A stretch of DNA of 64,000 bases from an uncultured Spirochaetota bacterium. GTDB lineage: Bacteria; Spirochaetota; Spirochaetia; SZUA-6; Fen-1364. Positions within the stretch are counted from its first letter, which is position 1, and each line of letters opens with the position of its first letter. Below are positions 10,642-35,421 of the stretch, piece after piece. Location of the stretch: contig CAVWBF010000015.1 of NCBI GenBank assembly GCA_963753085.1, positions 25,821 through 89,820 on the forward strand. The letters run 5' to 3'. Made by a program: the position numbers and the translations under genes. The notes under the pieces are model-generated. The model worked only from the letters and a program-made list of their open reading frames with translations. It searched no databases and had not been told where the DNA came from.

Positions 10642-10751
10642 TTCGAGGATGTATTCGCTCGACGTATGCTCCCCCCGTCTTGAACAAAAGGGGAGGTATC
10701 GGAGCGCCCCGATGGGCGTCAGACACCTCCCGATTCCAGAAGAAGCCAAGT

Positions 10752-11762
10752 CTATTTCTGGTACACGTCTTCCCTGGTCATGTAACCCTTGTCGATGAGC
10801 AGGTTGAGGTTGTCCTTGGTGACGGTGATTGCCTCTCCCCAATACACAGGCACTTCCTTGAACTTGTTATTGATCGTGCCGTGGGTGTACTGGAGGAAGT
10901 TTGTCTTTTTCACAAGGGCAACGGCGATCTTTACCGCGTGGTCAGCAAGGGATTCCTGGTCGCGGAATACGGTCATGGATTGTGTTCCCTGGTAGATTCT
11001 GCGGGCGGCGTCTTTTCCTGCATCTCCGCCGGTGATGGGAACCTTCCCGGCCAACCCCTGGGCAGCGAGAGCCTGGATTGCGCCTCCGGCCAGGTTGTCA
11101 TTCGGGCTGAGAACCGCCTGGATGTTGTTGTTGGTCTTGGTGAGGGCGTTTTCCGTTATCTTCATCGCGTTCTCAGGCTTCCAGTCCGCGGCGTGCTGGT
11201 CCACGATGATCTTGATGTCTCCACGGTCAATGGAGGGCTGGAGGACCTTCATGGCGCCGGAGTGGAAGAGGAACCAGTTGTAATCTTCTTTCATCCCGCG
11301 AAGCACGATGTAGTTGCCCCTGGGAGCCACTTTCAGCAGATATTCGCCCTGCAGCTCTCCTGTTCTCACGAAATCGTCAGAGACGTGGGCATCCAGGTCA
11401 GCACCGAGAATCAGGCGGACAAAACCGACAACCGGAATCCCCGCTTTCTTGGCTGCGGCCACGGAGGTCGCGGCGGCATCGGCATCATGCGGGGCAATGA
11501 TGAGAACGTCGATTTTCTGCGAAATGAGATTCTCCACCTGGTTGTTCTGCCTCACGGGGTCGTTGTTGGCGATCTGCATGAGCACTTCGCAACCAGCCGC
11601 CTCACCGAACTTGATGAGATTGTTCTTGTCGCGCACCCATCGTTCGACTTCCTGGGTAGGCAGCGAAACACCGATTTTTATCTTTTTGCCCTGTCCCCAG
11701 ACGCCCATCGTGAGCATCGCGAACGCAAGAATGAGAAGGAAACCCTTTGTGAAAGTACGCAT
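10752..11762 (-). CDS. xylF: D-xylose ABC transporter substrate-binding protein
   Basis: 336-aa ORF with AAGGAGG RBS and a signal peptide. Long colinear resemblance to E. coli XylF as I recall it (ERWxxDxxxF, GNYxxxxG, FxxGxMKVLxPxxDxGxIKxxxDQ, WxPENAxKIxENALT, NDxxAGGAIQALxAQGLxGKVxIxGxDA, GTQxMTV). Confidence 0.9.
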   Translation of the reverse strand: MRTFTKGFLLILAFAMLTMGVWGQGKKIKIGVSLPTQEVERWVRDKNNLIKFGEAAGCEVLMQIANNDPVRQNNQVENLISQKIDVLIIAPHDADAAATSVAAAKKAGIPVVGFVRLILGADLDAHVSDDFVRTGELQGEYLLKVAPRGNYIVLRGMKEDYNWFLFHSGAMKVLQPSIDRGDIKIIVDQHAADWKPENAMKITENALTKTNNNIQAVLSPNDNLAGGAIQALAAQGLAGKVPITGGDAGKDAARRIYQGTQSMTVFRDQESLADHAVKIAVALVKKTNFLQYTHGTINNKFKEVPVYWGEAITVTKDNLNLLIDKGYMTREDVYQK

Positions 11763-11972: not shown

Positions 11973-12710
11973 ATGATGCACATAGAGAAGATACAGCGAA
12001 CTACGGTCGTTGAGCGTGTAATGGAAAAGATGAAGGAGCTGATTGCCACCGGTCAATTCAAGGTGCATGAGCAGATACCGCCCGAGCAGGAACTGGCCGA
12101 CATGTTCGGCGTAGCCCGGTCTTCAATGCGGGAGGCAATCAAGATTTTCCACTATCTCGGGGTACTCGAGTCTCAGACCGGGCGCGGAACCTACGTCTGC
12201 GACCGCGGCAAGATCTCTACGGAGGCGCTGACCTGGTCCATTCTGCTCGGCGAACACGATATCTACGAAATGATCCATCTTCGCGAGGTGCTGGAGCAGG
12301 CAGGTCTCAAGATCATTGCCGAGAGCTACCGCGATGATCCCGCCAGCGTGGCGTCCGTGATGGAAGAACTGGAAAATGAAGTGGCGGCCATGAGGGCAGC
12401 GACGGAGCAAAAGGACATGAACTCCCTTATTGAAGCTGACTACAACTTTCATGGAGCGATCATTCGGGGGGGCAAAAACTCCCTTTTCTCGGCCATTTAC
12501 AGCACCCTGAGGTCTTTCATGCAGGAGGAAATCAAGAAGACCTACGAGGGGGCGGATATCGGCAAGGCGGCAAGGGAACACCAGGAGTTTATTGATGCCA
12601 TCAAATCTGAAAACGTGGGAAAGGTTCTTGAACTCCATCAGTCGCATATAAGGAGCATAACGGTCAAGCTCGAGTCCATGCTGGGAACTGGGCAGCCTGC
12701 GATCGTCTAA
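11973..12710 (+). CDS. GntR-family transcriptional regulator, FadR subfamily (wHTH + FCD domain)
   Basis: 245-aa ORF. The N-terminal wHTH EQELADMFGVARSSMREAIKIFHYLGVLESQTGRGTYV is a classic GntR signature. The C-terminal helical domain carries DYNFHGAI. Confidence 0.85.
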   Translation: MMHIEKIQRTTVVERVMEKMKELIATGQFKVHEQIPPEQELADMFGVARSSMREAIKIFHYLGVLESQTGRGTYVCDRGKISTEALTWSILLGEHDIYEMIHLREVLEQAGLKIIAESYRDDPASVASVMEELENEVAAMRAATEQKDMNSLIEADYNFHGAIIRGGKNSLFSAIYSTLRSFMQEEIKKTYEGADIGKAAREHQEFIDAIKSENVGKVLELHQSHIRSITVKLESMLGTGQPAIV

Positions 12711-12832
12711 AGTTCTCAATCGTTCCCTGAATCGCTAAAAAAATAGGTTTTCGAGCAATAACTGCCTTGACAGGCCAGTTGTTGTATGATACGATTGTCC
12801 TACAATTTGGCAATTAGGCAATAGGGACGATA

Positions 12833-13558
12833 GTGAAAATCGAACGAATACAGCGCGAAACGGTCGTGGAGCAGGTCATGGAGAGGATAAAAGAGCTCTT
12901 CGCATCCGGACGATTCAAGGTCCACGACAAGTTTCCCAGCGAGCAGGAGCTGGCCGTTCTCTTCGGGATTGGCCGCAATTCCGTGCGTGAAGCCATCAAA
13001 GTTTTCCATTACCTGGGGATCCTCGAATCGCAGGCCGGAAAAGGGACCTACGTATGCGACAGGGATAACATCTCCACTGAGGCTCTGACCTGGTCAATTC
13101 TGCTGGGGGAAAACGACATCTTCGAGCTGATCCAGCTTCGCGAGGTCCTTGAGCAGGACGGCTTGAGCACACTCGCCACGAACCTTGCCAGAAGGTCAAA
13201 AGCGGCCCTGGAGACCGTAGGCGCACTCGAGCTTGAAATCGAGTCCATCAAGGCGGCCGTTGAGGCCCGGGACCTGGATGCGCTCATTCTGGCCGATTAC
13301 AGGTTCCATGGAAAAATCACTGGAGCAAGCGGAAACTCACTCTTCAGCGCAATCTACGCCACCCTGCGGGCCTTCATGCGCGAGGAGATCATGCGCACGT
13401 ATCGCGACGTCGACATCCGCAAGGGAATCGGGGAGCACCGCGAGCTTCTCGACACTATTTGCAGCGCGGACAAGCAGAAAGCGGTGGCGCTGCTTGGGAA
13501 GCACATCGGCGGCGTGCGGGAAAAGCTCAAGGAAGCAGCAGCGGAAAGGGAGTCCTGA
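12833..13558 (+). CDS. GntR-family transcriptional regulator, FadR subfamily; paralogue of 11973..12710
   Basis: GTG start. EQELAVLFGIGRNSVREAIKVFHYLGILESQAGKGTYV. By-eye identity to the upstream paralogue is about 60-65 percent over the first 110 aa. A TTGACA (12767-12772) with TACGAT 17 nt later is a possible promoter. Confidence 0.85.
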   Translation: MKIERIQRETVVEQVMERIKELFASGRFKVHDKFPSEQELAVLFGIGRNSVREAIKVFHYLGILESQAGKGTYVCDRDNISTEALTWSILLGENDIFELIQLREVLEQDGLSTLATNLARRSKAALETVGALELEIESIKAAVEARDLDALILADYRFHGKITGASGNSLFSAIYATLRAFMREEIMRTYRDVDIRKGIGEHRELLDTICSADKQKAVALLGKHIGGVREKLKEAAAERES

Positions 13559-13576
13559 ACGGACCGTTGGTCCGTT
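13558..13576. promoter_or_regulatory. 19-bp perfect palindrome AACGGACC-GTT-GGTCCGTT (candidate operator, or weak terminator hairpin)
   Basis: Directly read: AACGGACC is the reverse complement of GGTCCGTT. It starts at the last base of the regulator stop codon and lies 31 nt upstream of the binding-protein ATG. The half-site TGGTCCG resembles the E. coli FadR operator core as I recall it. Confidence 0.35.
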
Positions 13577-13606: not shown

Positions 13607-14602
13607 ATGAGCAAAGGAATGAAAGGGATTCTCGTCGTCGTTGCGCTTCTCATGTGCGGAACGCTCCTGTTCGCCGAGGGCGCGAAGAAGCAGTTTCTGA
13701 TCGCCTACTCGCAGGCGGAGCTCGTCAACGCGTGGCGCGTGACGAACCAGAAGGACATGGAGGCCTGGGCGCAGAAGCTCGGGGTGAAGCTGATCAGCCT
13801 CGACGCGAACCAGGATCCCGCCAAGCAGCTGTCGGACATCCAGAACATGCTCGCACAGAAGCCTGACGCCCTCATCCTGTCTCCGCTGGAGTCCAAGGCG
13901 CTCGTGCCGGCCGTGAAGATGTGCGCGGATGCAAAAGTTCCCCTCGTCGTCATCGACCGCACCATCGAGGCGGAACCAGGGAGCGGGATCTATAAGACCG
14001 AGATAACGCAAAGCCACGTCCTCTCGGGGCAGAAGCTTGCCGAGAAAGCAGTCGAGCTGCTCACGAAGAAATACGGCAAGCCCCGGGGCAACGTCGTTCA
14101 CGTGCAGGGCATGGCGGGAGCATCGCCAGTCATCGACGCGAACAGCGGGTGGGACCAGGTAATGGCGAAGTACCCCAAGATCAAGACCGTGGCCGTCGCG
14201 GACGCGGGCTTCACGACGGAAGGCGGGATGAAAGTCATGGAGGATTTCCTCCAGCGCTTCCCCAAGGGCCAGATCGATGTTGTTCGCACTGACTACAGCG
14301 CCATGACCATGGGAGCCCTCCAGGCCATCAAGAACGCCGGCCGCAAGGAGCTGCTCGGGTACGTGGTTGGAGAAGGCGGCCACTACCTGGCCATTCAGGC
14401 TGTCATCAACGGGGAGATCGCCCGCGAGACCCAGACCCCGCCGTATTTCGGCGAGCTCGCCCTCAAGAGCGCCCTTGACGTCCTTGGCGGGAAGAGCGTC
14501 CCTGCCAGGCAGCAGGTTCCCATCAAGGTTTTCGATTCCACCAACAAGAGCGCCGCCCAGGAGTATTTCATCGACATCAGAGCCAAGGGGCTGGAGTTCT
14601 AG
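13607..14602 (+). CDS. sugar ABC transporter substrate-binding protein (RbsB/periplasmic-binding-protein type I family)
   Basis: 331-aa ORF with RBS GGGGGAAGGA. Signal peptide MSKGMKGILVVVALLMCGTLLFA. PBP type I pattern (DANQDPAKQLSDIQNMLAQKPDALILSP, VPLVVIDR). Confidence 0.85.
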   Translation: MSKGMKGILVVVALLMCGTLLFAEGAKKQFLIAYSQAELVNAWRVTNQKDMEAWAQKLGVKLISLDANQDPAKQLSDIQNMLAQKPDALILSPLESKALVPAVKMCADAKVPLVVIDRTIEAEPGSGIYKTEITQSHVLSGQKLAEKAVELLTKKYGKPRGNVVHVQGMAGASPVIDANSGWDQVMAKYPKIKTVAVADAGFTTEGGMKVMEDFLQRFPKGQIDVVRTDYSAMTMGALQAIKNAGRKELLGYVVGEGGHYLAIQAVINGEIARETQTPPYFGELALKSALDVLGGKSVPARQQVPIKVFDSTNKSAAQEYFIDIRAKGLEF

Positions 14603-14658
14603 CACTCAGAGGGGCCGGGCCCTCCCGGCCCCCATTTTTCCCGTGGAGGAACGCTCGC

Positions 14659-16170
14659 ATGCCGGATTCTGTCCCGCTGCTCGCTCTTGCAGGAGTCAAT
14701 AAGTCTTTCTCAGGAGTGCAGGTGCTCCGTGACGTGTCCTTTGACCTGTTTCCTCGAGAAGTGCATTGCCTTGTCGGAGAGAACGGCGCCGGCAAGTCCA
14801 CGCTGATCAAAATCATCTCGGGGGCGTACCGCTTCGACAGCGGAGAGATCTCATACCTCGGGCGGCATCTTTCGCACGTGAATCCTCGCTGGGCCATCGG
14901 ACACGGCATCACCACCATCTACCAGGAGATCGACGTTGTCCCCGATCTCAGCGTGGTGGAAAACATTTTTCTGGGGCGGGAGCCACGGACTCCCCTTGGC
15001 TTCATCGACCGGGCGGCCATGCGTCAGCAGGCTCGGAAGCTCATGGAGGATATCGGAATCCAGCTCGACATGTCCGTCCCCGTGGGATCGCTGAAAGTCG
15101 CCCAGCAGCAGATGGTGGCGATCGCCAAAGCCCTGTCGCTTGAGAGCCGCGTCCTCATCCTGGATGAACCGACAGCGGTTTTCACGGCCTCGGAAGTCGA
15201 TGCGCTGTTCCGTGTCATCCGCAGGCTCAAGGACCAGGGTCTCGGGATCGTGTTTATTTCCCATCATCTCGAGGAGATCTTTCGAATCGGAGACCGGGTC
15301 ACGGTCCTGCGGGACGGCCGCGTCACCCGGATCGGGCTTGTTTCGGAGTTCGACAAGGACAGCCTTGTGCAGGCCATGGTCGGACGGGCAATCAACTTCG
15401 GTGATCGCGCTCCGGAAACCACCCCGGGAGAAGAGATCCTGAGAGTGAGCGGATTATCGCGGACCGGCTTCTATGCAGGAGTCTCTTTCGGGTTGCGCAG
15501 GAGGGAAATCGTCGGGGTGGCCGGCCTGGTGGGGTCCGGTCGCACTGAAATGGCTCGAGGCATTTTCGGAGCAGACCCCATCACCGCTGGCACGCTTACC
15601 GTGAAAGGGAAGAAAACCCGCATTCGCTCTCCGCACCACGCACTTGCACAGGGAATCGGAATGCTGCCGGAAAACCGCAAGGAGGAAGGGCTGGTCCAGG
15701 TCCGCCCTCTTCTCGAGAACGCCGCGTACAGCGCGGTGCAGGCCACCGCCCGGGCTGGTCTTGTGCGGTGGTCGCAAATCCGACGCGTGGTGCGGGCAGT
15801 GGTGAAAAAGGTGGAAGCCCGGTATCCCAGCCTCAATACCGAGGTCCGCTATTTGAGCGGGGGAAACCAGCAGAAAGTCGTCATCGCCAAGTGGCTGGCG
15901 GCCCGCAGCGACGTGCTGATCCTGGATGAGCCTACCCGCGGGGTCGACGTGGGAGCCCGGGAGGAAATCTACAAGCTCATGCAGCAGTTCAAGCAGGAAG
16001 GGAAGGCCATCCTCATGATCTCCTCCGACCTCCCGGAGATCCTCACCCAATCGGACAGGATCCTCATCATGGCAAAGGGACGAATCGTCGGCGAGCTCTC
16101 CAGAGAGGAGGCCACCGAGGAGAAGGTGATGAGCGTGGCCCTCGGAGTGGCCGGAGGCGGGGCATCGTGA
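14659..16170 (+). CDS. sugar ABC transporter ATP-binding protein (two ABC domains)
   Basis: 503-aa ORF with RBS GGAGGA. Walker A GENGAGKST, LILDEPT, second signature LSGGNQQK, ILDEPTRGVDVGA. Confidence 0.9.
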   Translation: MPDSVPLLALAGVNKSFSGVQVLRDVSFDLFPREVHCLVGENGAGKSTLIKIISGAYRFDSGEISYLGRHLSHVNPRWAIGHGITTIYQEIDVVPDLSVVENIFLGREPRTPLGFIDRAAMRQQARKLMEDIGIQLDMSVPVGSLKVAQQQMVAIAKALSLESRVLILDEPTAVFTASEVDALFRVIRRLKDQGLGIVFISHHLEEIFRIGDRVTVLRDGRVTRIGLVSEFDKDSLVQAMVGRAINFGDRAPETTPGEEILRVSGLSRTGFYAGVSFGLRRREIVGVAGLVGSGRTEMARGIFGADPITAGTLTVKGKKTRIRSPHHALAQGIGMLPENRKEEGLVQVRPLLENAAYSAVQATARAGLVRWSQIRRVVRAVVKKVEARYPSLNTEVRYLSGGNQQKVVIAKWLAARSDVLILDEPTRGVDVGAREEIYKLMQQFKQEGKAILMISSDLPEILTQSDRILIMAKGRIVGELSREEATEEKVMSVALGVAGGGAS

Positions 16171-17147
16171 CAGGGACACCATCCGCCCGTGAGCTTTTCC
16201 GCCGGCTTGGTCCCTACAGCGCCTGGGTCGTGCTTCTCCTCCTGCTCGCCTACGGGTCCATCGGCGTTCGCAACTTCCTCTCCACGGAGAACCTTTCCGC
16301 TGTTCTCTACCAGTATTCCATCATCGGGCTGCTCGCCCTTGGCCAGTTTCTGGTCATTCTGACCGCGGGGATCGATCTTTCCCAGGGCTCTCTCGTGGCT
16401 CTGACGTCCATCACCACGGCTCTCATCCTCTCACGGTACGGAATTCCCGTCGGGATCGCCGGCGGGGTTATCCTGGCAACGGGAGTTGGGGCCGCGAGCG
16501 GGTTCCTGGTATCCCGGACCACCATGCCCCCGTTCCTCGTAACACTCGGAATGATGGGAATCGCGCGCGGGCTGGCCCTGCAGATCGCCAACGCGCGGCC
16601 GGTCCCCATTTACAACGATGCCTTCATCGCTTTCGGCTCGAGCTCTTTCCTCTGGATCCCGGTGTCCACGTACATATGGCTCGGAGCTTCTCTCCTTGTC
16701 TTCTTCTTCCTGAACCGGCGTCCGTGGGGGAGGTATGTGTACGCGGTAGGATCAAGCGAGGAAAACTCGCGTTTGAGCGGAATCAAGGTGTCCTCCGTGA
16801 AGCTCGCGGTCTACGTGGCCTCCGCGCTGCTCACGGCCATCGGCGGTGTGATCTGGACGTCCCGTCTGGGCTCCGGGTCCCCCGTCGGCGGGGTCAACTA
16901 CGAGCTTGAAAGCATCGCCGCGGTGGTTGTCGGAGGCGGAAGCCTCTTCGGCGGAAGAGGGCGAGTGGATGGTGTCGTGGCGGGCGTGCTCATCTTCGGG
17001 CTGATCAACAGCGTCCTGAACCTTTCCGGCATCTCTCCGTTCTGGCAGGGGATGATCAAGGGCTTGATCGTGCTGCTCGCCGTTGCGCTCAGCCAGTTGC
17101 GAAGCCGTCCCCCCAGCGGGAGCACAGTGGAGCGCGCCCATGCGTGA
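16167..17147 (+). CDS. sugar ABC transporter permease (RbsC-like)
   Basis: GTG start overlapping the upstream stop (GTGA). LTAGIDLSQGS and YAVGSSEENSRLSGI motifs. Multiple TM segments. Confidence 0.85.
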   Translation: MTGTPSARELFRRLGPYSAWVVLLLLLAYGSIGVRNFLSTENLSAVLYQYSIIGLLALGQFLVILTAGIDLSQGSLVALTSITTALILSRYGIPVGIAGGVILATGVGAASGFLVSRTTMPPFLVTLGMMGIARGLALQIANARPVPIYNDAFIAFGSSSFLWIPVSTYIWLGASLLVFFFLNRRPWGRYVYAVGSSEENSRLSGIKVSSVKLAVYVASALLTAIGGVIWTSRLGSGSPVGGVNYELESIAAVVVGGGSLFGGRGRVDGVVAGVLIFGLINSVLNLSGISPFWQGMIKGLIVLLAVALSQLRSRPPSGSTVERAHA

Positions 17148-18117
17148 GATGAGCGGCATCCAGCAGTGGAGAGTTCGAACCAAGAGCGACACGCAGCGAA
17201 TGATCACGACCTTCGCTATCCTCGTCGTGCTCGGTGGAGCCGCGGCTGTCCTCTCCCGCGGGGTCTTCCTCAAGCCGACGAACCTCCTGAACCTCGTTTT
17301 TCAGAACGTCATCCTCGGAGTTGTTTCCCTCGGCCAGTACCTCGTCATCCTGACCGCGGGCATCGACCTGAGCGTCGGCTCCATGGTCGGCTTGAGCACC
17401 GTGCTGTTGATGGTGCTGCAATCACTGGGGCTTCCCGCGGCCCTCGTCGTGGCGGTAGCCGTGCCGCTCGCAATAGGGGCAGTCAACGGTTTCTTTGTGT
17501 CCGTCCGCAGGCTCCCCGCTTTCGTGGTGACCCTGGCCATGATGCTCTTCACGTACTCACTGGCGCAGGTCATCAGCGGCGGGGCAGGCGTCTACTCGGG
17601 CTTGAACGGCGCGCCCCTCTCCCCGGTTCTCGTGGCTTTCAACCAGAACGCCCTGATCGGCATTCCCTACCCGGCCATTGTCTGGATCGTCGTGATGTGC
17701 GCAGTCGGCCTGTACGGTCGCCTGAGCGTCGGGCATTTCGCCCACGCGGTTGGCGGGAACGAGAGGGCGGCCCTGCTCTCCGGCGTCCCCGTTGTCCTGG
17801 TGCGGTTCCTGGTGTACGCCGCATCGGGTTTGCTGGCCGCCGTGGGTGGAATTCTTGCCGTGGCACGCGTCGGTGAAGGGCACCCGGCCGCGGGCCAGAC
17901 GTATCTCCTGGATTCGATTGCCGCCGTCACGATCGGGGGAACAAGCCTGGCAGGGGGGGAAGGCAGCGTCATCGGAACGCTCATGGGGGTCATCATCCTG
18001 GGCACCATCAACAACATCATGAACCTCTTGAACGTCTCTCCGATGCTGCAGCCGGCCGTGAAAGGGGTCGTTATTCTCGTGGCCGTGTACATCAACAGCC
18101 GCCGTCAGCGCGGGTGA
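17140..18117 (+). CDS. sugar ABC transporter permease (second, RbsC-like)
   Basis: ORF 17083..18117. ATG 17140 overlaps the upstream stop (ATGCGTGA). LTAGIDLSVGS and HAVGGNERAALLSGV motifs. Confidence 0.85.
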   Translation: MREMSGIQQWRVRTKSDTQRMITTFAILVVLGGAAAVLSRGVFLKPTNLLNLVFQNVILGVVSLGQYLVILTAGIDLSVGSMVGLSTVLLMVLQSLGLPAALVVAVAVPLAIGAVNGFFVSVRRLPAFVVTLAMMLFTYSLAQVISGGAGVYSGLNGAPLSPVLVAFNQNALIGIPYPAIVWIVVMCAVGLYGRLSVGHFAHAVGGNERAALLSGVPVVLVRFLVYAASGLLAAVGGILAVARVGEGHPAAGQTYLLDSIAAVTIGGTSLAGGEGSVIGTLMGVIILGTINNIMNLLNVSPMLQPAVKGVVILVAVYINSRRQRG

Positions 18118-18128
18118 AGGGGGAAAAA

Positions 18129-19529
18129 GTGAACCGTCCTGTTGTGGCCGTCGCGACGCTGGGGGAGACTCGGGAGGATGTGCGCAAGCAGAGGGAGAGC
18201 CTTGTCCAGGAGGAGCGGCAGGCCATCGGCTGGCTCCGGGATTATTGTGATCCCATCGAGTCCCCGGTTCTTTCGGATCCATCGCAGGTGCGGGAGTTCG
18301 CGGAGTCCGCGCGCAAGGCCGACCCTCACGTGCTGGTCATCCACCTTCCCGTGTGGACGAATCCCGTGCTCAGCGTGCAGCTTTGCTCACTGCTCCCCAT
18401 TCCGACAATCCTCCTTGGCAACGGCAGGCAGGAAACCTCGAGCCTTGTGGGGATTCTCGGGGCGGGCGGGGCGCTCGATCAGGCGGGCATTGCTCATGAG
18501 AGGGTGTTCGATCACAACGACAAAGGAGAGCGACTACGGGTTGGCGCCTTTTTCCATGCCGCCCGTGCAAAGAAGGCGCTGCAGGGGCGGACGCTGGGTC
18601 TCTTCGGGGGGAGAAGCCTGGGCATCGTGACTGCCGCGGCCGACGCTTCCCAGATCATGAGGATTTTCGGTGTCGATATCGAGCCGGTGGATCAGGCCGT
18701 CATCATCGAGCGGGCTCGGGGTCTGCCGGCTGGAGAGGTGCGTCGGCATGCGAAATGGCTTACCGGGCGGCTTGGCGAGGTGCGTTTCGGAGGATCGTTT
18801 ACAACGGAGGGCCTGGAGCGGCAGGTCAGGGGCTACATCGCAACGGCGCAGCTTGCCGCGGAGAGGGGATTCGACTTTGTCGGAGTGAAGTGTCAGCCCG
18901 AGCTGAGCGATGGATATGCGAGCCACTGCGTCTGTCACATGCTGATGAATGGTTGCGAAGACGCGGATGGGCAGAAAGAAGCCGTGGTCCACGCGTGCGA
19001 AGCGGACGTGGACGGTGCTCTCACCATGCAGATCCTCCACCTTCTGTCAGGTGGGAGCCCGGCTGGCCTTCTGGACGTGCGATGGATGGATCCCCGAAGC
19101 GGCGTCCTCACGCTGGCAAACTGCGGGGCCATACCCGCCGCCTTCGCCGCGGATGGAGCCGACCCGAGCGGCCTTTCGCGCGTCCGAATGGTTCCCCACT
19201 CCTTCGGGGGAGGCGGGGGGGCGGCCTTGCCCTTCGTTGCAGCCCCCGGGAAAGTGACCCTGGCCCGGCTGTGCAGGCGCAAAGGGACGTACTGGATGGC
19301 GGTCGCGGGCGGAGAGGTGGAGCGCCGGGACCCCGAGATGCTTTCGCGGACTACCGCCGAGTTCCCCCAGGCATTCGTTCGTGTTGACGGAGCGCGCGAG
19401 CTCCTGGCGGAGTTTGGATCGAACCACATTCATATTGTCAGAGGTGATTTCCGGGAGGAGCTGCATCAGTTCTGCAGGTTGGCCGGCATAGAGCACCGGC
19501 AGTGGCCGCGATCCAGCGAAAAGGAGTGA
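18129..19529 (+). CDS. L-fucose/L-arabinose isomerase superfamily protein (FucI-like, substrate unknown)
   Basis: ORF 18114..19529. GTG 18129 follows AAGGGGGA by 5 nt; GTG 18114 overlapping the permease stop is the alternative. About 466-471 aa. The layout resembles FucI-family proteins as I recall them (N-terminal VAVATLGETRED, central FVGVKCQPELSD, C-terminal NHIHIVRGD). Confidence 0.7.
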   Translation: MNRPVVAVATLGETREDVRKQRESLVQEERQAIGWLRDYCDPIESPVLSDPSQVREFAESARKADPHVLVIHLPVWTNPVLSVQLCSLLPIPTILLGNGRQETSSLVGILGAGGALDQAGIAHERVFDHNDKGERLRVGAFFHAARAKKALQGRTLGLFGGRSLGIVTAAADASQIMRIFGVDIEPVDQAVIIERARGLPAGEVRRHAKWLTGRLGEVRFGGSFTTEGLERQVRGYIATAQLAAERGFDFVGVKCQPELSDGYASHCVCHMLMNGCEDADGQKEAVVHACEADVDGALTMQILHLLSGGSPAGLLDVRWMDPRSGVLTLANCGAIPAAFAADGADPSGLSRVRMVPHSFGGGGGAALPFVAAPGKVTLARLCRRKGTYWMAVAGGEVERRDPEMLSRTTAEFPQAFVRVDGARELLAEFGSNHIHIVRGDFREELHQFCRLAGIEHRQWPRSSEKE

Positions 19530-19533
19530 GGTC

Positions 19534-21483
19534 ATGGAGCAGGAGCATTTCGGCTACTGGGGCAGGATTCTCCGCGTGGACCTCTCCGCGGGAACCTGGA
19601 AATCCGAAACGCCGGAAGACGGCGTCTACAGGCGCTATGTCGGCGGGCGCTCCCTCGCGCTGTACTTCTACCTCCGGGAGGCTCCGGCCGGTCTTGACCC
19701 GCTGGGGCCGGAAAACCTGCTCATCTTCATGACGTCTCCCACGACGGGGGCGCCGATCTCGGGCCAGGCGCGGCACACCGTTCTGTGCAAGTCTCCCCTG
19801 ACCGGCGGCCTGGCCGACTCGCAGTCCGGCGGCTGGTGGGGCGTGGAGCTCAAGTTCGCGGGATGGGACGGGATCATCATAACGGGTGCCGCGCGCGAGC
19901 CGGTGTACCTGTTGATCGAGGACGAGCGGGTGCGCATCCTTCCCGCCGCGCACCTCTGGGGCAAGAGCACGGGAGAGGTGCAGGAGATTCTTGCGGGGGA
20001 GATCCCGCAGGGCGCACGAATACTGCAGTGCGGACCCGCGGGAGAGAGAAAGGTCCGGTTCTCCGCCATCACCAGCGACCTTCGGGATTTCAACGCCCGG
20101 GGCGGGACAGGCGCCGTCATGGGAAGCAAGATGCTCCGCGCGATAGCGGTCAAGGGGACCCACCGGAAGCTGCGACTGGCGGATGCGGACGCCGTGAAGA
20201 ACATCGCGCGCTGGTTTGCCGGAAGCGTCAAGGAACATCCGGCGGTGAGCCTTCACCACGACCTCGGGACGCCGAAAGGCGTGGTTCCCGTCAGCGTCCA
20301 GGGAATCCTTCCGACATATAACTTCCAGGACGGCTCATTCGCCTCGGTCGAAGCCGTAGGCGGGGAAGCGATGAAGAAGGAAATTGGGGCAGGCACGGAA
20401 ACCTGTTATGCGTGCGCCGTTTCCTGCAAGCGTGTCGTCGAGGGAGAGAAGGGCGGTTTCCGGGTGAGCAGCCGGTACGGCGGTCCGGAGTACGAATCAC
20501 TGGTTGCTTTGGGTCCGGGGCTCGGTGTGGACAATATCGCTGCCATCGCGCAGTGCAACGAAAGATGCAATGCGCTGGGGCTCGACACCATCTCTTCCGG
20601 GGTGACTATCTCCTGGGCAGTCGAGTGTTTCGAGCGGGGCCTGATAAATACAAAAGACACGGGAGGCATTACGCTGCGCTGGAACGACCCGGCCACCTAT
20701 CTCCAGCTGCTCGATGCCATAGCATCACGCCAGGGCTTCGGAGACATCCTGGCGGAGGGGAGCCTGAAGGCAGCCAGGAAGATCGGCCGTGGGACCGAGC
20801 GCTTTGCCATGCAGGTGAAAGGCCAGGAGCTGCCGTCACACGAGCCGAGGGGAAAATGGGGAGTCGCTCTGGGGTATGCCGTGTCACCCACAGGGGCCGA
20901 CCATCTCCAGGCTGCGCATGATCCGTGGTTTGCCAAGCCAGGGGATTTCTCGAAGGAGTTCAATTGGGTGGACCTGGAGGACCTGAGCCCTCTTGGGCTC
21001 ACGGACCCCGTTCCCGCGGAGGACATAGGCTCGGCAAAGGTCCGGCTGTTCGTCTACCTGCAGTACATCTGGGCGCTCCACGATGTCCTGGATTGGTGCA
21101 TCTTCACGACTGTCCCCGAGTTCCGAGCCATCTCTCTCAACCAGCTGGTGGACGTGGTTCGAGGCGTCACGGGCTGGAGAACAAGCCTGTTTGAGATGCT
21201 GAAGGCCGGGGAAAGGGCAGTGACAATGGCGCGAGCCATGAACTGCAGAGAAGGCCTGGGCGCCCAGGACGATCGTATCCCTGAAAGGTTTTTCGAGCCC
21301 ATGCGCGCGGGCACGCTCAAGGGTCATTTCATCAATCGCGAAGAGTTTGCGGAAGCCGTGAAAATGTACTATGCCATGATGGGGTGGGACGCTGAGGGCG
21401 TCCCGACACGCGCGAAACTGGAGGAGCTCGGTGTCGGCTGGATCTGGCCGCACATCGCGCCAAAGGCAAAAGTCGGAGCCTGA
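19534..21483 (+). CDS. aldehyde:ferredoxin oxidoreductase family protein (tungsto/molybdopterin, 4Fe-4S)
   Basis: 649-aa ORF with RBS AAGGAG. N-terminus YWGRILRVDLSAGTW...YVGGRSLA is typical of AOR. 4Fe-4S ligand motif CxxCxxxC (ETCYACAVSCKR). Pterin-region block EPRGKWGVALGYAVSPTGADH. Confidence 0.9.
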   Translation: MEQEHFGYWGRILRVDLSAGTWKSETPEDGVYRRYVGGRSLALYFYLREAPAGLDPLGPENLLIFMTSPTTGAPISGQARHTVLCKSPLTGGLADSQSGGWWGVELKFAGWDGIIITGAAREPVYLLIEDERVRILPAAHLWGKSTGEVQEILAGEIPQGARILQCGPAGERKVRFSAITSDLRDFNARGGTGAVMGSKMLRAIAVKGTHRKLRLADADAVKNIARWFAGSVKEHPAVSLHHDLGTPKGVVPVSVQGILPTYNFQDGSFASVEAVGGEAMKKEIGAGTETCYACAVSCKRVVEGEKGGFRVSSRYGGPEYESLVALGPGLGVDNIAAIAQCNERCNALGLDTISSGVTISWAVECFERGLINTKDTGGITLRWNDPATYLQLLDAIASRQGFGDILAEGSLKAARKIGRGTERFAMQVKGQELPSHEPRGKWGVALGYAVSPTGADHLQAAHDPWFAKPGDFSKEFNWVDLEDLSPLGLTDPVPAEDIGSAKVRLFVYLQYIWALHDVLDWCIFTTVPEFRAISLNQLVDVVRGVTGWRTSLFEMLKAGERAVTMARAMNCREGLGAQDDRIPERFFEPMRAGTLKGHFINREEFAEAVKMYYAMMGWDAEGVPTRAKLEELGVGWIWPHIAPKAKVGA

Positions 21484-21486
21484 TGG

Positions 21487-21723
21487 ATGATTGTGACCGC
21501 GCGCCTTTTCGGCACGTTGCGAAGATTCGCTTCCCCCGGTTGCCCAGGCCTCTGGCGGGGGGACCTTCCGAATGGCTCTACCGTGGGCGACGTGGTGCGG
21601 GCATTCGGGGCCGAAGAGAGGGAGGTGTCCGCGGCAACCTTGAACGGAGTGCTGGTGCCGCTCACCACGGCCGTCCCGCCGGCGGCAGACCTTGTCCTCG
21701 TGACGCTCATGGGCGGCGGCTGA
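21487..21723 (+). CDS. MoaD/ThiS-family ubiquitin-like sulfur-carrier-type protein
   Basis: 78 aa. The ATG lies 4 nt after the AOR stop. Begins MIVTARLFGTLRRF (MoaD-like) and ends LMGGG-stop, giving a C-terminal Gly-Gly. The overlapping 83-aa ORF 21483..21734 in another frame has no such features. Confidence 0.65.
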   Translation: MIVTARLFGTLRRFASPGCPGLWRGDLPNGSTVGDVVRAFGAEEREVSAATLNGVLVPLTTAVPPAADLVLVTLMGGG

Positions 21724-21749
21724 GCAACAAATAAAGGAGAACCAAACGA

Positions 21750-22838
21750 ATGGGCACACAGAACGGAAAGAGTCCGCTTCAGCTGATGACTTCCACCACC
21801 CCGACATCGCTGTGGAACGACTCCTGTTCCATACCGGAGCTGGAGTACGCTCTGGAGCATGGCGCGGTGGGCGCCACCAGCAACCCGGTGATCGTCGGTG
21901 ACGTGCTGAAAAAGGAGATGCCTGCCTGGAAGGACCGCATCTGCGCTATCGCGGCTGAGATGCCAACGGCAACAGAGGACGAGGTTGCCTGGCGCCTTAT
22001 CGAGGAGATGTCCGTAAAGGCCGCCCGGCTGCTTCTGCCCGTATTCAAGGCGCACAAGGGAAAGAACGGCCGGCTTTCGATCCAAACGGATCCCCGGTTG
22101 TACCGGGACACCGAGGCCATCGTTCGCCAGGCAGTGCATTTCAGCGAGCTTGCACCAAACATGATCGTGAAAATACCGGTGACAAAAGCGGGGATTGATG
22201 CTATTGAAGAGGCGACCTTCCAGGGCGTCAGCATCAACGCCACTGTGAGCTTCACCTTCCCGCAGGCAGTCGCGGTGGCCGAGGCGGTGGAGAGGGGGCT
22301 CTCACGGCGTGAAAAGCAGGGGAAGGATATCTCCACCATGGGGCCGGTCTGTACCATCATGGTCGGGCGCCTGGACGACTGGCTGAAGGTTGTTGCGGAG
22401 AAGGAAGGCATCGTCACGACGCCAGGAAATCTCGAATGGGCGGGAGTGGCAGTGATGAAAAAGGCATACCGCGTCTATCGTGAGCGCGGCTACCGGTTGC
22501 GCCTGCTTTCGGCGGCGTTCCGCAACCACATGCACTGGAGCGAGTTCATTGGCGGGGACGTGGTGATCTCGCCACCGCACGCGTGGCAAAAACGCTTCAA
22601 CCAGAGCGACATTCCGGTCTGCAACCGAATGGACACTCCGGTGGACCAGCACATCGTGGCCGACCTCACTCGGAGGTTCACTGACTTCCGCAGGGCGTAC
22701 GAAGAAAAAGGCATGAGCGCCGCTGAGTTTGACACATTTGGGCCCACTGTTCGGACCCTCAGGCAGTTCATCAACGCCTATGCGAGCCTCGTGGGGGTCA
22801 TCCGGGATCTGATGCTGCCCAATCCTGACGCCAGGTGA
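21750..22838 (+). CDS. transaldolase (long form, about 360 aa)
   Basis: RBS AAAGGAG. TSLWNDS and GAVGATSNPVIV near the N-terminus, and the lysine-bearing MIVKIPVT strand, are typical of the transaldolase/FSA family. Confidence 0.85.
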   Translation: MGTQNGKSPLQLMTSTTPTSLWNDSCSIPELEYALEHGAVGATSNPVIVGDVLKKEMPAWKDRICAIAAEMPTATEDEVAWRLIEEMSVKAARLLLPVFKAHKGKNGRLSIQTDPRLYRDTEAIVRQAVHFSELAPNMIVKIPVTKAGIDAIEEATFQGVSINATVSFTFPQAVAVAEAVERGLSRREKQGKDISTMGPVCTIMVGRLDDWLKVVAEKEGIVTTPGNLEWAGVAVMKKAYRVYRERGYRLRLLSAAFRNHMHWSEFIGGDVVISPPHAWQKRFNQSDIPVCNRMDTPVDQHIVADLTRRFTDFRRAYEEKGMSAAEFDTFGPTVRTLRQFINAYASLVGVIRDLMLPNPDAR

Positions 22839-22855
22839 GAGGAACGGAGGAAATC

Positions 22856-24022
22856 ATGACAAGGGAACCGAGGACAGAAACCATCGCATCGCAGCCCTCC
22901 TGGGTTATCGAAAACGAGGAAGTCCGGGTTGCTCTCACTCTGAATGGCGGCCACATGGCCCCCGTCACTTTTTTCCGAAACAGCGGGACTCCTGTTGAGC
23001 CCTACCACATCAGCCCATGGCAGGGAGAAGGGCTTTCGATCCAGGATCCGGTGCTCAGAACCCTGAGAGGGGATTTTTTCTGCATGCCTTTTGGCGGTGC
23101 GAGCGTCGATAAAGGCGTCACACATTCGACCCATGGCGAGCCGGCAACCTCAACCTGGGGAGGGGGCAGTGTTGAGCAGTCGGGGGGTATTGCGCAAATA
23201 ACAGCCCTGATGTCTTCCTCAACTCTCAAAGGGCGGATCAGCAAGAGCATCTCCCTTGTCTCAGGCCAGAACGTTGTCTACGTGCGTCACGTGCTCGAGG
23301 GATACGATCTTCGCGCGCCCCTCGGACACCATGCCACCCTGGCAGGAGGCGAGCAGCCTGATTCCCTTCTCATTGCCACCAGCCCGGTGCAATTCGGACG
23401 CGTGGGCCCGCGGCCCCCGGGCACGTTTGAAAGTGACGGCGAATACAACGCCCTGGCTGCGGGAGCGACCTTCCGCAGCATCAGCAAGGTCCCGACAGTC
23501 TGGAAAGAGATGCCGTTCGATTCATGCGCGGCGTTCCCGCGCCGCCGGGGCTTCTGCGACATCATCCAGGTATACAACAAGCTCACGCGCGGCCCCGCGT
23601 GGGTCACCGCCGTCAACCGGTCGCAGGGATGGCTCTGGTTCTCGCTCAAGGACCCGGCGGTCCTTCCATCGACTGTGTTCTGGATGGAGAATCACGGACG
23701 ACACGGCGATCCCTGGAAGGGCCGCAACTGCTGTCTCGGACTAGAAGACGTTTGCAGCTATTTCGCAATGGGGCTGCCGGCCTCAGCGAAGAGGAACGAA
23801 GCCACTCAGGCAGGGATTCCGACGGCAATAAAGCTGTCGCCCCGACAACCCACCGCTGTCAACTACATTCAGGGTGTGACGCGAGTTCCCAAAGGATTCG
23901 GGCGCGTGCGAACGGCCCGTTTCGAGGAAGGGAAGGTCTCCTTCATCAGTGAATCAGGCAAAACAGCCAGCGCCGCCGTTGACCACGGCTTCCTTTTCTC
24001 AGGGGCTATCGGCCGGAAGTGA
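22856..24022 (+). CDS. hypothetical protein, possibly galactose-mutarotase-like fold
   Basis: ORF 22835..24022. ATG 22856 lies 5 nt after GGAGG (22846-22850). Weak motifs (LNGGHMAPV, ISPWQGEG, LRGDFFCMPFGG, HGEPA) resemble aldose-epimerase-like proteins. It is the last gene of the same-strand unit. Confidence 0.45.
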   Translation: MTREPRTETIASQPSWVIENEEVRVALTLNGGHMAPVTFFRNSGTPVEPYHISPWQGEGLSIQDPVLRTLRGDFFCMPFGGASVDKGVTHSTHGEPATSTWGGGSVEQSGGIAQITALMSSSTLKGRISKSISLVSGQNVVYVRHVLEGYDLRAPLGHHATLAGGEQPDSLLIATSPVQFGRVGPRPPGTFESDGEYNALAAGATFRSISKVPTVWKEMPFDSCAAFPRRRGFCDIIQVYNKLTRGPAWVTAVNRSQGWLWFSLKDPAVLPSTVFWMENHGRHGDPWKGRNCCLGLEDVCSYFAMGLPASAKRNEATQAGIPTAIKLSPRQPTAVNYIQGVTRVPKGFGRVRTARFEEGKVSFISESGKTASAAVDHGFLFSGAIGRK

Positions 24023-24936: not shown

Positions 24937-24952
24937 TAATGAATTGGAATAG

Positions 24953-25299
24953 TGGAGGTGGCGGGAGTCGAACCCGCGTCCTGGAGTGTTGACCAAGAAC
25001 CTCTACAGGTTTATCCGCCCGTTAGATCTCGGCAGAAAGTTTGGGAGGCGGCGTCCCGCTTCCCGCCAAAGCCCGCTTTAATGTCCCCGGACGCCCGCTG
25101 GCATGCGCTCGGGTAAGCCCCGGTTTGTTACAGGCACCTCTGGATGTTCGGGACCACGCTCCAAAGACCCGTGGCCGCAATTAAGCAGCCATTGCGAAAT
25201 CTGCGTTATTGGCAGTTGTGTTTTTGCCATTTTTAGGAGACTGGCGCTCCACCTGCAGCCCATGGCCGAACCGACCCCAGTCGAGACCGTTGCACCCCC
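24953..25299 (-). ncRNA. ssrA: tmRNA (transfer-messenger RNA)
   Basis: 5' end GGGGGTGCAACGGTCTCGACTGGGG; 3' end GGACGCGGGTTCGACTCCCGCCACCTCCA. T-arm GGTTCGACTCC. The 7-bp acceptor stem includes the G3:U70 alanine identity pair. Internal tag frame GGC AAA AAC ACA ACT GCC AAT AAC GCA GAT TTC GCA ATG GCT GCT TAA (25228..25181). Length 347 nt. Lies directly downstream of smpB. Confidence 0.9.
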
Positions 25300-25437: not shown

Positions 25438-25902
25438 CTACTTTATCCTGTACTCGCGCTCGATCTCTCTCTTCTGGTCTCTCTTCCGGATATCGTCTCG
25501 CTTGTCAAAGAACCTCTTGCCTTTTGCGATGCCAAGCTCGCACTTCACGATGCCACGTTTAAGATAGAACTTGAGAGGAACGAGGGTCAAGCCTTTCTCA
25601 TCGGTAACGCGCGCCAGGCGCTTGATCTCCTTGCGATGGACAAGGAGCTTCCTCCTGCGCAGCGGCTCATGATTGACCCGGTTGCCGAATGCGTACGGGG
25701 TGACATGGAAGTCTATGAGCCATAGCTCGCCTTTTTCCACGAGGGCGTACGAGTCTGCGAAGGAGAACCTTCCTTCCTTGATGGATTTGACCTCGGTCCC
25801 CACGAGAGAGATCCCGCACTCGAAGGATTCCTGGATGGCATAGTTGAACCTCGCTTTCCTGTTGACCGCGAGGACCTTGATCCCGCCTTCTGTCTTTGCC
25901 AT
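25438..25902 (-). CDS. smpB: SsrA-binding protein SmpB
   Basis: ORF 25438..25968. Start moved to ATG 25902 (MAKTEGGIKVLAVNRKARFNY), downstream of the preceding gene's stop at 25920. GISLVGTEVKSIK, HEPLRRRKLLVHRKEI and the basic C-terminal tail are canonical SmpB. Confidence 0.9.
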   Translation of the reverse strand: MAKTEGGIKVLAVNRKARFNYAIQESFECGISLVGTEVKSIKEGRFSFADSYALVEKGELWLIDFHVTPYAFGNRVNHEPLRRRKLLVHRKEIKRLARVTDEKGLTLVPLKFYLKRGIVKCELGIAKGKRFFDKRDDIRKRDQKREIEREYRIK

Positions 25903-25919
25903 AGAAAACGCCTGGCCGG

Positions 25920-34815: not shown

Positions 34816-35421
34816 ATGAACATCTCAGAAATCGCCAGGTTTCTGGGAGTCAGCAGACCAACTGCGTCAGCTCGGGTCCGGGAATTGCAGCGTAATGGGA
34901 TTGTCCGTCTGCTCCCTTTCATGGGGGCGGGTGGAAAGTCTCTCCTGTACCTGCGCCACGTGTATGGGTCGGGGCCGGAATCCTATCGAAGCTATTGCAC
35001 GGAAGCGGTCATCGAAAAAATACAGGAACTGTTCCCTGAAAGCTCCTTCTTCTGGTGGAAGACCGGGTATGTGCGGCGGATCGACCTTTTGGCCGTGATC
35101 GGAGACAGGCGGATCGGCTTCTGCTTTTCCGACACCATATCTCCTCTAAACAGGGATTGGTGGCCGTTTCGCGCCTGCTTTGCACAAGGGCTTATTCACC
35201 GGGCATTCCTTTTGTATCGGGGCAATCGAGCTTTCTATCTCGGTCCCATGGCGAGCGCGGTGCCTGCCAGGGCATTTCTGTCTGAGGCGGAAGACTGGAT
35301 TCTAAGCCGATGCACCCGGCGCGAAGTCCTGGCGGTCAACGCGCGAATCAATAGGTATGCTGATCCATGGTCTGGAAGTCTGCGCGGACCTTTTCCAGCC
35401 GCGCCAGCTGCGCGTCAATGA
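34816..35421 (+). CDS. wHTH + DUF4143-type protein, probably a 5'-truncated remnant of an AAA+ ATPase (AAA_14/DUF4143) gene
   Basis: ORF 34744..35421, using ATG 34816. MNISEIARFLGVSRPTASARVRELQRNGIVRLLPF and FFWWKTGYVRRIDLLAVIGDRRIGFCFSD resemble the middle and C-terminal parts of DUF4143 ATPases. No Walker A region precedes it. The 3' end overlaps the convergent gene by 74 nt. Confidence 0.4.
   Translation: MNISEIARFLGVSRPTASARVRELQRNGIVRLLPFMGAGGKSLLYLRHVYGSGPESYRSYCTEAVIEKIQELFPESSFFWWKTGYVRRIDLLAVIGDRRIGFCFSDTISPLNRDWWPFRACFAQGLIHRAFLLYRGNRAFYLGPMASAVPARAFLSEAEDWILSRCTRREVLAVNARINRYADPWSGSLRGPFPAAPAARQ

Follow-up and report, generated by a model that had tools for sequence, protein, structure and literature searches.

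Background

Enzymes of the aldehyde:ferredoxin oxidoreductase (AOR) family that act on sugar-derived aldehydes (GAPOR/GOR; glyceraldehyde:ferredoxin oxidoreductase of the non-phosphorylative Entner-Doudoroff pathway) are known from archaea and a few thermophiles, and most bacterial members of the family are orphans in terms of physiological role. Two other described systems resemble the locus analyzed here: the sulfoglycolytic transaldolase (sulfo-TAL) route, and the lower myo-inositol pathway, in which 5-dehydro-2-deoxy-D-gluconate (DKG) is the product of IolB and the conversions catalyzed by the Iol enzymes are well established. In this work we analyzed a stretch of 64,000 nucleotides (hereafter the window) from an uncultured Spirochaetota bacterium (GenBank assembly GCA_963753085.1, contig CAVWBF010000015.1, positions 25,821 to 89,820), which contains an operon coupling an ATP-binding cassette (ABC) sugar importer to a FucI/AraA-fold isomerase, an AOR, a MoaD-like protein, a transaldolase-like protein (TAL) and a mutarotase-fold protein. 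This arrangement goes far beyond chance; about 20 further species-level loci, distributed over at least five phyla, show an identical gene order. We propose that these genes make up a single conserved unit of catabolism whose isomerase, TAL-like cleavage enzyme and AOR cooperate. This part of our proposal stands on considerably firmer ground than the full model, in which a self-contained, kinase-free operon would convert an imported aldose to a DKG-type ketose, TAL would release malonate semialdehyde, and the AOR would oxidize an aldehyde of the route. We hold the full model tentatively, at somewhat less than an even chance.

Gene content of the operon

According to the list of open reading frames (ORFs) and our reading of the sequence, nine tightly packed, co-directional ORFs form the unit (Table 1), in the order periplasmic sugar-binding protein (SBP), ABC ATPase, two permeases, isomerase, AOR, MoaD-like protein, TAL and a 388-aa protein. 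The gene families and their order had been assigned in an initial annotation made from the sequence alone, and both are matched by the Pfam and NCBIfam profiles. That annotation counted ten genes behind a single FadR-type regulator; we found nine, a tenth being reached only when a regulator is included, and the regulator proved to be of the GntR/FCD type, with two such genes in tandem rather than one. The junctions overlap, in order from the ATPase/permease 1 boundary, by GTGA, ATGCGTGA and GTGA, and the gaps from the isomerase gene onward measure 4, 3, 26 and 17 nt, as initially listed except that the second had been given as 4 nt. The SBP and ATPase genes are separated by 56 nt containing a G+C-rich hairpin.

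The Pfam scan of the window covered its 50 larger ORFs, a few smaller ones such as 35348-37564, 44787-45695 and 55179-57186 being left out. Within the unit it revealed no sugar kinase, no aldolase of class I or II and no NAD(P) dehydrogenase, the same outcome as in the initial annotation, and the 50 scanned ORFs as a whole likewise yielded none of these.

Conservation of the module and its variants

To assess conservation, an alignment of the isomerase was compared with one genome per species, yielding at least 80 loci, which were then examined by tblastn with the window proteins. An AOR gene directly follows the isomerase gene in about 21 other species loci, 15 of which also carry TAL, and in about 15 other species loci that have both the isomerase and TAL the AOR and MoaD-like genes stand between them. 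In full, the order is SBP-ATPase-permease-permease-isomerase-AOR-MoaD-TAL. These loci belong to Spirochaetia, Chloroflexota (Anaerolineae, Caldilineaceae and others), Actinomycetota, Bacillota/Clostridia and Calditrichales. In the non-spirochaete loci, genes for a LacI regulator and a DUF4432 protein lie upstream, in place of the GntR regulator and the 388-aa protein. The AOR is 62-91% identical within the conserved module, above the 42-76% of the isomerase. Because the module recurs across phyla with high AOR identity, the AOR/MoaD pair belongs to the unit and is not a chance neighbor. The survey of the isomerase-AOR-MoaD-TAL neighborhood thus bears out the earlier view of these genes as a single unit.

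A number of loci show instructive variations. In Anaeromyxobacter (L017/L175), the ABC and isomerase genes are followed by a non-acylating NAD-type aldehyde dehydrogenase and a GntR regulator, with neither AOR nor TAL. In Symbiobacteriaceae (L018/L093), the gene for an isomerase of 59% identity precedes those for a Cgl0159-like TIM-barrel protein, a PfkB kinase reaching 359 bits on the IolC model (cut-off 300), and an IclR regulator; cg0198 (Cgl0159) is named only 'conserved hypothetical protein' in one Corynebacterium glutamicum paper. The Chloroflexia locus L019/L094 has the isomerase-TAL pair only, with an adjacent, divergent aldo-keto reductase (AKR) gene, and isomerase-TAL pairs without AOR are also found in L076, L077, L083 and L090. 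In L023, L030 and L035 the ABC-isomerase-AOR genes are followed by unrelated ones (a MoaD-like gene is present in L030 and L035), and distant isomerase-AOR pairs without TAL occur in L057, L061, L073 and L080. Finally, in L027, L034 and L041 a CoA-acylating dehydrogenase of the methylmalonate/malonate-semialdehyde type (MMSDH/IolA) is encoded downstream of TAL, directly so in the first two; the L027 enzyme scores 554 bits on TIGR01722 (cut-off 448), and the other two have what we take to be MMSDH-type motifs. Such interchangeable partners (AOR, aldehyde dehydrogenase, AKR, or kinase plus aldolase-like protein) fit the pattern expected of an aldehyde-releasing route.

The Symbiobacteriaceae locus L093 also encodes, 6 kb upstream of the isomerase (418-4246, minus strand), a three-subunit molybdenum oxidoreductase of the xanthine dehydrogenase family together with its own ThiS-like gene, possibly the equivalent of AOR and MoaD in this locus.

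The Gln-type TAL clade and its inositol gene context

TAL scores 141.7 bits on TAL_FSA (PF00923; cut-off 27) and has the Schiff-base lysine, Lys141, in the motif MIVKIPVT, which is invariant in 143 of 143 relatives; it is thus a member of the TAL/FSA superfamily. At the position of the catalytic Glu of solved transaldolases it has Gln112, retained by 142 of the 143 relatives: its GRLSIQTDP corresponds to GRVSIEVDP in 3r5e and to SLEVSP in 3clm (the C. glutamicum and Neisseria gonorrhoeae enzymes). The Phe/Tyr position, Phe in the solved transaldolases, is occupied by Met204. The best scores on NCBIfam transaldolase models are far below their cut-offs (128.8 versus 367 and 95.2 versus 233.75 bits), which sets the protein apart from classical transaldolases (EC 2.2.1.2). 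Fructose-6-phosphate aldolase (FSA) has the catalytic residue Tyr131, a Gln at the Glu position (Glu96 in TalB) and about 220 aa. TAL shares the Gln, but with Met204, a length of 362 aa and 43 bits on TIGR00875 (cut-off 246) it does not qualify as an FSA. The solved sulfofructose transaldolase BmSF-TAL (8bc3) is matched with 31 bits over residues 103-178 only, so TAL is not an SftT either. On sequence grounds we assign it to a distinct 'Gln-type' clade of the superfamily. Its initial description as a long-form transaldolase calls for a caveat, the catalytic Glu being replaced by Gln throughout the clade.

The Gln-type clade is very large and highly conserved, with about 70% identity between this spirochaete and Acidobacteria. 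In individual look-ups its members were found beside genes for IolG-like, IolE-like, IolD, IolB and LacI proteins, or paired with an MMSDH-type dehydrogenase. We surveyed the context of Gln-type TAL genes in 49 metagenome loci of at least 6 kb, and counted as neighbors IolG-like proteins in 25, IolE in 18, IolD in 17, IolB in 11 and an MMSDH-type dehydrogenase in 12. None of the 49 had IolC; iolJ was not searched for. Other recurrent neighbors are transporters, LacI, DegT, TPR proteins and the like, and dihydroxyacetone kinase, which would be expected for a plain aldolase, is not among the recurrent neighbors of the clade.

A complete operon of TAL, an SSF transporter, IolB, IolD, IolA, IolE and IolG was found in L143 and L163. 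Complete-looking myo-inositol operons with a Gln-type TAL and no iolC within reach, containing IolG, IolE, IolD, IolB, IolA and a transporter, are present in these two loci as well as in L169, L172, L173, L157 and L008-L010. These operons suggest that the lower inositol pathway also exists in a form without a kinase, so far undescribed, that is common among soil contigs of Acidobacteria-like type.

In a neighbor-joining tree the TALs of the window and of L013, L014, L019 and L020 interleave with those from iol operons and those paired with MMSDH, which argues for one shared function. The simplest such function would be to cleave DKG with release of malonate semialdehyde, replacing IolC plus IolJ. 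In the literature on transaldolases with inositol genes we found no paper describing the Gln-type clade.

Isomerase, AOR and companion proteins

The isomerase exceeds the Fucose_iso_C cut-off (64 versus 29.3 bits), placing it in the FucI/AraA superfamily. Sequence search gave no match to solved structures, and only the comparison of folds worked: the AlphaFold2 (AF2) model (pLDDT 90.5) matches D-arabinose, L-fucose and L-arabinose isomerases (3a9r, 4c20, 1fui, 2ajt) with Foldseek TMq of 0.78-0.84 at 14-18% identity. Its nearest named family in NCBIfam is SftI, at 61.7 bits against a cut-off of 700, and FucI reaches 14.5 bits against 775, so neither equivalog applies. Within the superfamily, the protein belongs to an uncharacterized subfamily. 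Canonical fucose or arabinose use was considered and rejected, as the equivalog scores are far too low and no FucK/FucA or AraB/AraD goes with the isomerase.

More distant relatives of the isomerase (35-44% identical) pair with Gln-type TALs or AORs in sugar-acid-like clusters that carry TRAP transporters, lactonase, Ldh_2 and SDR genes, and in some cases corrinoid methyltransferase components; the cluster in L077, for example, has lactonase, Ldh_2, SDR, an HpcH aldolase and a TRAP transporter. The isomerase, TAL and AOR thus seem to be a recurring toolkit in sugar-acid contexts. Two such clusters from Anaerolineales and Thermoflexales (L072:4254-18539 and L073:3134-13473) combine isomerase-AOR with Ldh_2, a creatininase-family protein, SDR and URO-D-family proteins, and L073 additionally encodes a B12-binding protein. 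Their substrate may be a methylated sugar or cyclitol from which a corrinoid system removes the methyl group.

The AOR has both family domains and four cysteines (C291-x2-C294-x3-C298 plus C522), the first three forming the CxxCxxxC cluster motif already noted in the initial annotation. It is nearest to the broad-range AOR of Pyrococcus furiosus (1aor, 391 bits) and reaches only 44 bits on GAPOR (cut-off 1300). It is predicted to be an aldehyde:ferredoxin oxidoreductase with a tungsto- or molybdo-pterin and a 4Fe-4S cluster; no tungstate transporter was found by Pfam among the scanned ORFs. The small protein encoded next is a ThiS/MoaD member by a marginal ThiS score (Table 1) together with its C-terminal Gly-Gly. 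Its gene is kept after AOR in 15 loci, and most of these homologs have GGG or NGG at the C-terminus or within 1-2 residues of it; presumably it is an AOR accessory for cofactor handling. A reverse role, in which the AOR would reduce a carboxylate to supply the isomerase, was rejected as the main reading, Anaeromyxobacter having an NAD-type aldehyde dehydrogenase instead.

In another assembly of the same locus (L001:7783-9736) the AOR is split into fragments of 369 and 173 aa, and a MoaD-like gene is missing from the gene calls; given the intact copy in the window, a frameshift or assembly error is the probable cause. Permease 2 is called there as 325 aa.

The 388-aa protein has no match in Pfam or NCBIfam. 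Its AF2 model (pLDDT 94, built on 36 homologs) is closest in Foldseek to aldose 1-epimerases (3nre, 3ty1, 3mwx, 4bze, GalM; E-values of about 1e-11 to 1e-9), and hhalign, with 96% probability, relates it to DUF4432 proteins encoded in the Chloroflexi loci, aligning the HGE, GHH and LE(D/P) motifs. From the model and the alignment we describe it as a mutarotase-fold (aldose 1-epimerase-like) protein and distant DUF4432 relative, in agreement with the earlier remark on mutarotase-like motifs. A 66%-identical homolog is found in L002 (6115-11152), in a cluster of AOR, ThiS, 2-keto-3-deoxy-6-phosphogluconate (KDPG)-type aldolase and URO-D genes with GFO/IDH, ADH, FGGY kinase, cupin GPI and 2-hydroxyacid dehydrogenase genes upstream. 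By its gene content, L002 is a second AOR-plus-aldolase sugar cluster.

The ATPase is AraG/RbsA-like (520 bits in NCBIfam, under the equivalog cut-offs), and the solved structures nearest to the SBP are ribose- and galactofuranose-binding proteins. Relative to RbsB, the SBP pocket has the substitutions F16R, R141A, N190Y and D215G, invariant in 20 aligned SBPs; it contains one Arg more and one Asp fewer. Carboxylates are the usual effectors of FCD regulators, and these regulators and the pocket might fit an anionic ligand, which is a weak pointer. Across phyla the SBP is 70-81% identical, compared with 42-76% for the isomerase and 55-74% for the ATPase of the same operons (about 20 loci, e.g. 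L016:5370-6281). Stronger conservation than that of the isomerase and ATPase of its own operon is unusual for a solute-binding protein, and conservation on this scale suggests one specific, widespread substrate.

A proposed kinase-free catabolic route

In the proposed route, the CUT2 ABC system would import a hexose-level aldose, probably an acidic compound of the deoxy-uronate type related to 5-deoxy-D-glucuronate. The mutarotase-fold protein would provide the right anomer for the isomerase, much as FucU does for FucI, and the FucI-fold isomerase would perform an IolB-type step from the sugar to a D-threo 2-ketose of DKG type. The Gln-type TAL would then form a Schiff base on Lys141 and cut the C3-C4 bond, giving malonate semialdehyde as one product; the dihydroxyacetone unit would be handed to glyceraldehyde-3-phosphate to yield fructose-6-phosphate or, less likely, set free as dihydroxyacetone. 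Matured with the MoaD-like protein, the AOR would oxidize an aldehyde of the route, either the released malonate semialdehyde or, at an earlier stage, an aldehyde group of the sugar, to the acid and reduce ferredoxin.

We infer the DKG-type ketose and malonate semialdehyde from genomic context, because three signals lead to the lower myo-inositol pathway: the iol surroundings of the TAL clade, the IolC-type kinase after an isomerase homolog, and the IolA-type genes after TAL, seen in L027, L034 and L041 and not in the window. The three signals are independent. The interchangeable AOR, aldehyde dehydrogenase and AKR partners fit an AOR that acts after TAL on the released aldehyde, as the initial annotation proposed. 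By tblastn, IolG, IolE, IolD and IolB were not found in the window or the core loci, and no module copy has IolG, IolE or IolD within 10 kb. The locus is thus without the upper enzymes that define an iol operon, and the substrate would therefore enter at or near 5-deoxyglucuronate.

Several points count against this route besides the lack of upper inositol genes. The exchange of the catalytic Glu for Gln and of the Phe/Tyr position for Met leaves transaldolase chemistry not assured, and the metal of the AOR (tungsten or molybdenum) is not readable from sequence. To our knowledge, 5-deoxyglucuronate is not an environmental nutrient, and we know of no natural source. Malonate formed by oxidation of malonate semialdehyde would be of no obvious use, and L027, L034 and L041 carry AOR and IolA together. 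Finally, L175, L023, L030 and L035 keep the ABC-isomerase-AOR (or aldehyde dehydrogenase) genes without an adjacent TAL, which fits better with an AOR acting on the sugar itself. We also attempted to name the sugar by stoichiometry, considering 5-deoxyglucuronate, a C6H10O5 dialdose, glucuronate and 5-keto-fructose among others; none of them fits all observations.

The alternative that survives best, in our view still unlikely, places the AOR before TAL: a second aldehyde group, borne by the imported sugar or laid bare by its isomerization, would be oxidized to the carboxylate of DKG, and TAL would then release malonate semialdehyde for IolA. The gene order isomerase-AOR-MoaD-TAL(-IolA) would be collinear with this route, the joint presence of AOR and MMSDH/IolA in L027, L034 and L041 suggests two different aldehyde oxidations, and both the four module copies without an adjacent TAL, which look as if they fed a standard intermediate, and the recurrent distant isomerase-AOR pairs would be accounted for. 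It requires, however, a C6H10O5 dialdose or keto-aldehyde such as 5-deoxy-hexodialdose, for which we know of no natural source; the mutarotase companion suggests an ordinary cyclic aldose, and isomerase-TAL pairs that lack AOR exist in five loci.

The initial annotation had considered 6-deoxy- and sulfo-sugars as substrates, an idea that runs against the low SftI and FucI scores of the isomerase and the 31 bits between TAL and BmSF-TAL. A neutral hexose or 6-deoxy-hexose (e.g. D-quinovose or D-rhamnose) would give a ketose of 6-deoxy-D-fructose type, from which TAL would produce lactaldehyde or glyceraldehyde and the AOR lactate or glycerate. The alternation of AOR, aldehyde dehydrogenase and AKR does resemble the oxidative and reductive fates of lactaldehyde in fucose and rhamnose catabolism, and the structural neighbors of the SBP bind ribose and galactofuranose. 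We nevertheless judge this decidedly unlikely: iol operons and MMSDH are the setting of the TAL clade, the variant locus has a kinase above the IolC cut-off, FCD regulators usually sense carboxylates, and the ketoses of L-fucose and L-rhamnose do not have the C3/C4 configuration that TAL-type enzymes require. The 50 scanned ORFs include no rhamnosidase or fucosidase, and likewise no sulfoquinovosidase or other glycosidase, sulfonate exporter or upper inositol gene.

Sulfoquinovose, degraded through sulfofructose to sulfolactaldehyde by TAL and on to sulfolactate by the AOR, is highly improbable. SftI is the nearest named family of the isomerase, the overall logic is that of sulfo-TAL (with the kinase plus aldolase-like variant in L093 paralleling sulfo-EMP), and the SBP pocket has its extra Arg. 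Against these stand an SftI score of 62 bits where 700 are needed, a TAL of another subfamily than the solved short-form sulfofructose transaldolase, the IolC-type kinase of the variant locus, and MMSDH neighbors that make no sense for sulfolactaldehyde; the gene cluster also differs from that of sulfo-TAL, since neither a sulfoquinovosidase nor a TauE-type sulfonate exporter is present among the scanned ORFs or the recurrent neighbor families of homologous loci. A further possibility is that AOR and MoaD serve general aldehyde detoxification and were inserted into a sugar operon to which they are unrelated. This is hardly credible even though such pairs occur in many unrelated contexts and a related one accompanies the KDPG-type aldolase of L002, as the pair keeps its position between isomerase and TAL in about 16 loci of several phyla, is spaced here by 3-4 nt, and includes an AOR more conserved than the isomerase.

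Returning to the DKG-based route, we can extend it to the whole clade: Gln-type TALs would be DKG transaldolases/aldolases that replace IolC plus IolJ, and strict anaerobes of several phyla would have joined them with a new FucI-fold isomerase, a mutarotase and a tungsten-type AOR in an independent operon, linked to ferredoxin, for an unrecognized deoxy-sugar acid or aldehyde-sugar. This wider proposal is possible, and on balance rather doubtful. A literature search on AOR with inositol or with a sugar operon, on DUF4432 and on cg0198/Cgl0159 yielded nothing relevant.

Regulators and remaining features of the window

Two tandem GntR/FCD regulator genes precede the operon (Table 1). Homologs of the first, 64-66% identical, adjoin the module in L014, L015 and L017. 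Divergent from the pair lies a second CUT2 ABC system, with a binding protein, an ATPase and one long permease; there may be one regulator per transporter, the first perhaps serving this second system. The palindrome ahead of the operon begins right behind the stop codon of the second regulator, 31 nt before the SBP start, and may be an operator or the terminator of the second regulator gene. The hairpin behind the SBP gene is likely a partial terminator or mRNA stabilizer; intra-operon hairpins behind a binding-protein gene are typical of differential expression of the binding protein and the membrane components.

Directly downstream of the operon lie the tmRNA gene and smpB, and because they adjoin, the operon is placed in the core chromosome. 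The tmRNA is the sole Rfam match in the window; no Moco/Wco riboswitch or other leader RNA was detected in it by the Rfam scan. The remaining scanned ORFs have housekeeping functions (SmpB, signal peptidases, RuvAB, QueA, TamB/BamA, MutS, NusA, IF2 and PNPase). One ORF of 1140 aa without a Pfam match, possibly encoding most of the N-terminal part of a large protein of TamB type, overlaps a TamB-domain ORF, after which comes a BamA/Omp85 gene.

Table 1. Positions of the operon genes and of other features in the window
Feature	Position	Strand	Evidence or remark
CUT2-type periplasmic sugar-binding protein (SBP), RbsB/YtfQ-like	13607-14602	+	Peripla_BP_4, 146 bits
ABC ATPase, two nucleotide-binding domains	14659-16170	+	ABC_tran x2
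ABC permease 1	16167-17147	+	BPD_transp_2
ABC permease 2	17140-18117	+	BPD_transp_2; start is the ATG inside ATGCGTGA
FucI/AraA-fold aldose-ketose isomerase	18114-19529	+	Fucose_iso_C, 64 bits
AOR-family oxidoreductase	19534-21483	+	AFOR_N 233 bits, AFOR_C 408 bits
78-aa ThiS/MoaD-like protein, C-terminus MGGG	21487-21723	+	ThiS 23.8 bits (cut-off 22.5)
TAL_FSA protein (TAL), 362 aa	21750-22838	+	TAL_FSA, 142 bits
388-aa mutarotase-fold protein	22856-24022	+	predicted structure; no Pfam or NCBIfam match
Whole operon	13607-24022	+	nine ORFs
GntR/FCD regulator, first of tandem pair	11973-12710	+	Pfam GntR and FCD
Promoter-like site upstream of second regulator	12767-12795		sequence
GntR/FCD regulator, second, directly upstream of operon	12833-13558	+	GntR 56 bits, FCD 67 bits
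Perfect 7-3-7 palindrome ACGGACC-GTT-GGTCCGT	13559-13575		read from sequence
All-GC hairpin, 9-bp stem and T-run, 3' of SBP gene	14611-14632	+
Second CUT2 ABC system	7926-11762	-	binding protein, ATPase, one long permease
tmRNA gene	24950-25299	-	Rfam, 152 bits
smpB	25438-25968	-
1140-aa ORF	37561-40983		no Pfam match
TamB-domain ORF	40847-42010		overlaps the 1140-aa ORF

Implications and comparison with known systems

In its composition the locus is a new sugar catabolic operon, and through it an enzyme clade came to light that is probably unrecognized. A conserved AOR between a sugar isomerase and a sugar-cleaving enzyme offers a concrete physiological role for a bacterial AOR; as a ferredoxin-reducing step in carbohydrate fermentation, it would bear on how communities of peat, sediment and digesters conserve energy and produce hydrogen. 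The Gln-type clade appears to explain many iol operons that have no iolC kinase gene (with iolJ outside the search). If this is true, soil Acidobacteria commonly have a lower inositol pathway without a kinase, and inositol catabolism would have to be annotated differently in abundant soil bacteria.

Among single enzymes, E. coli FSA shares with TAL the superfamily and the Gln at the transaldolase Glu position, whereas TAL has Met at the FSA Tyr, is of the long 362-aa form, and scores far under the FSA cut-offs. Enzymes of the GAPOR/GOR type carry out, as proposed here, a ferredoxin-linked oxidation of an aldehyde from aldol-type sugar cleavage; unlike them, the present AOR is nearest to 1aor and is embedded in a bacterial ABC-isomerase-TAL operon.

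The sulfo-TAL route (SftI, SftT and sulfolactaldehyde dehydrogenase/reductase) resembles the proposed one in that an aldose is converted to a ketose, the C1-C3 unit is passed to glyceraldehyde-3-phosphate without a kinase, and a C3 aldehyde is oxidized or reduced; the isomerases of both belong to the FucI-like superfamily. The present isomerase is far under the SftI cut-off, however, and TAL is a 362-aa Gln-type protein as opposed to the short sulfofructose transaldolase. A pterin/Fe-S AOR stands here where sulfo-TAL has an NAD-dependent enzyme, and the genomic context points to a carboxylated deoxy-ketose.

The lower myo-inositol pathway (IolB, IolC, IolJ and IolA) has in common with our proposal the intermediates DKG and malonate semialdehyde. 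It is further linked to it by the co-occurrence of the TAL clade with IolG, IolE, IolD, IolB and IolA, by the IolA-type genes after TAL in three module copies, and by the IolC-type kinase after the isomerase in the variant locus. The operon analyzed here differs in having no IolG, IolE, IolD or IolB, in a FucI-fold isomerase at the place of the cupin IolB, and in a TAL-like enzyme at the kinase plus aldolase step, with an AOR in addition; its dedicated ABC importer and mutarotase would imply the entry of a ready-made aldose.

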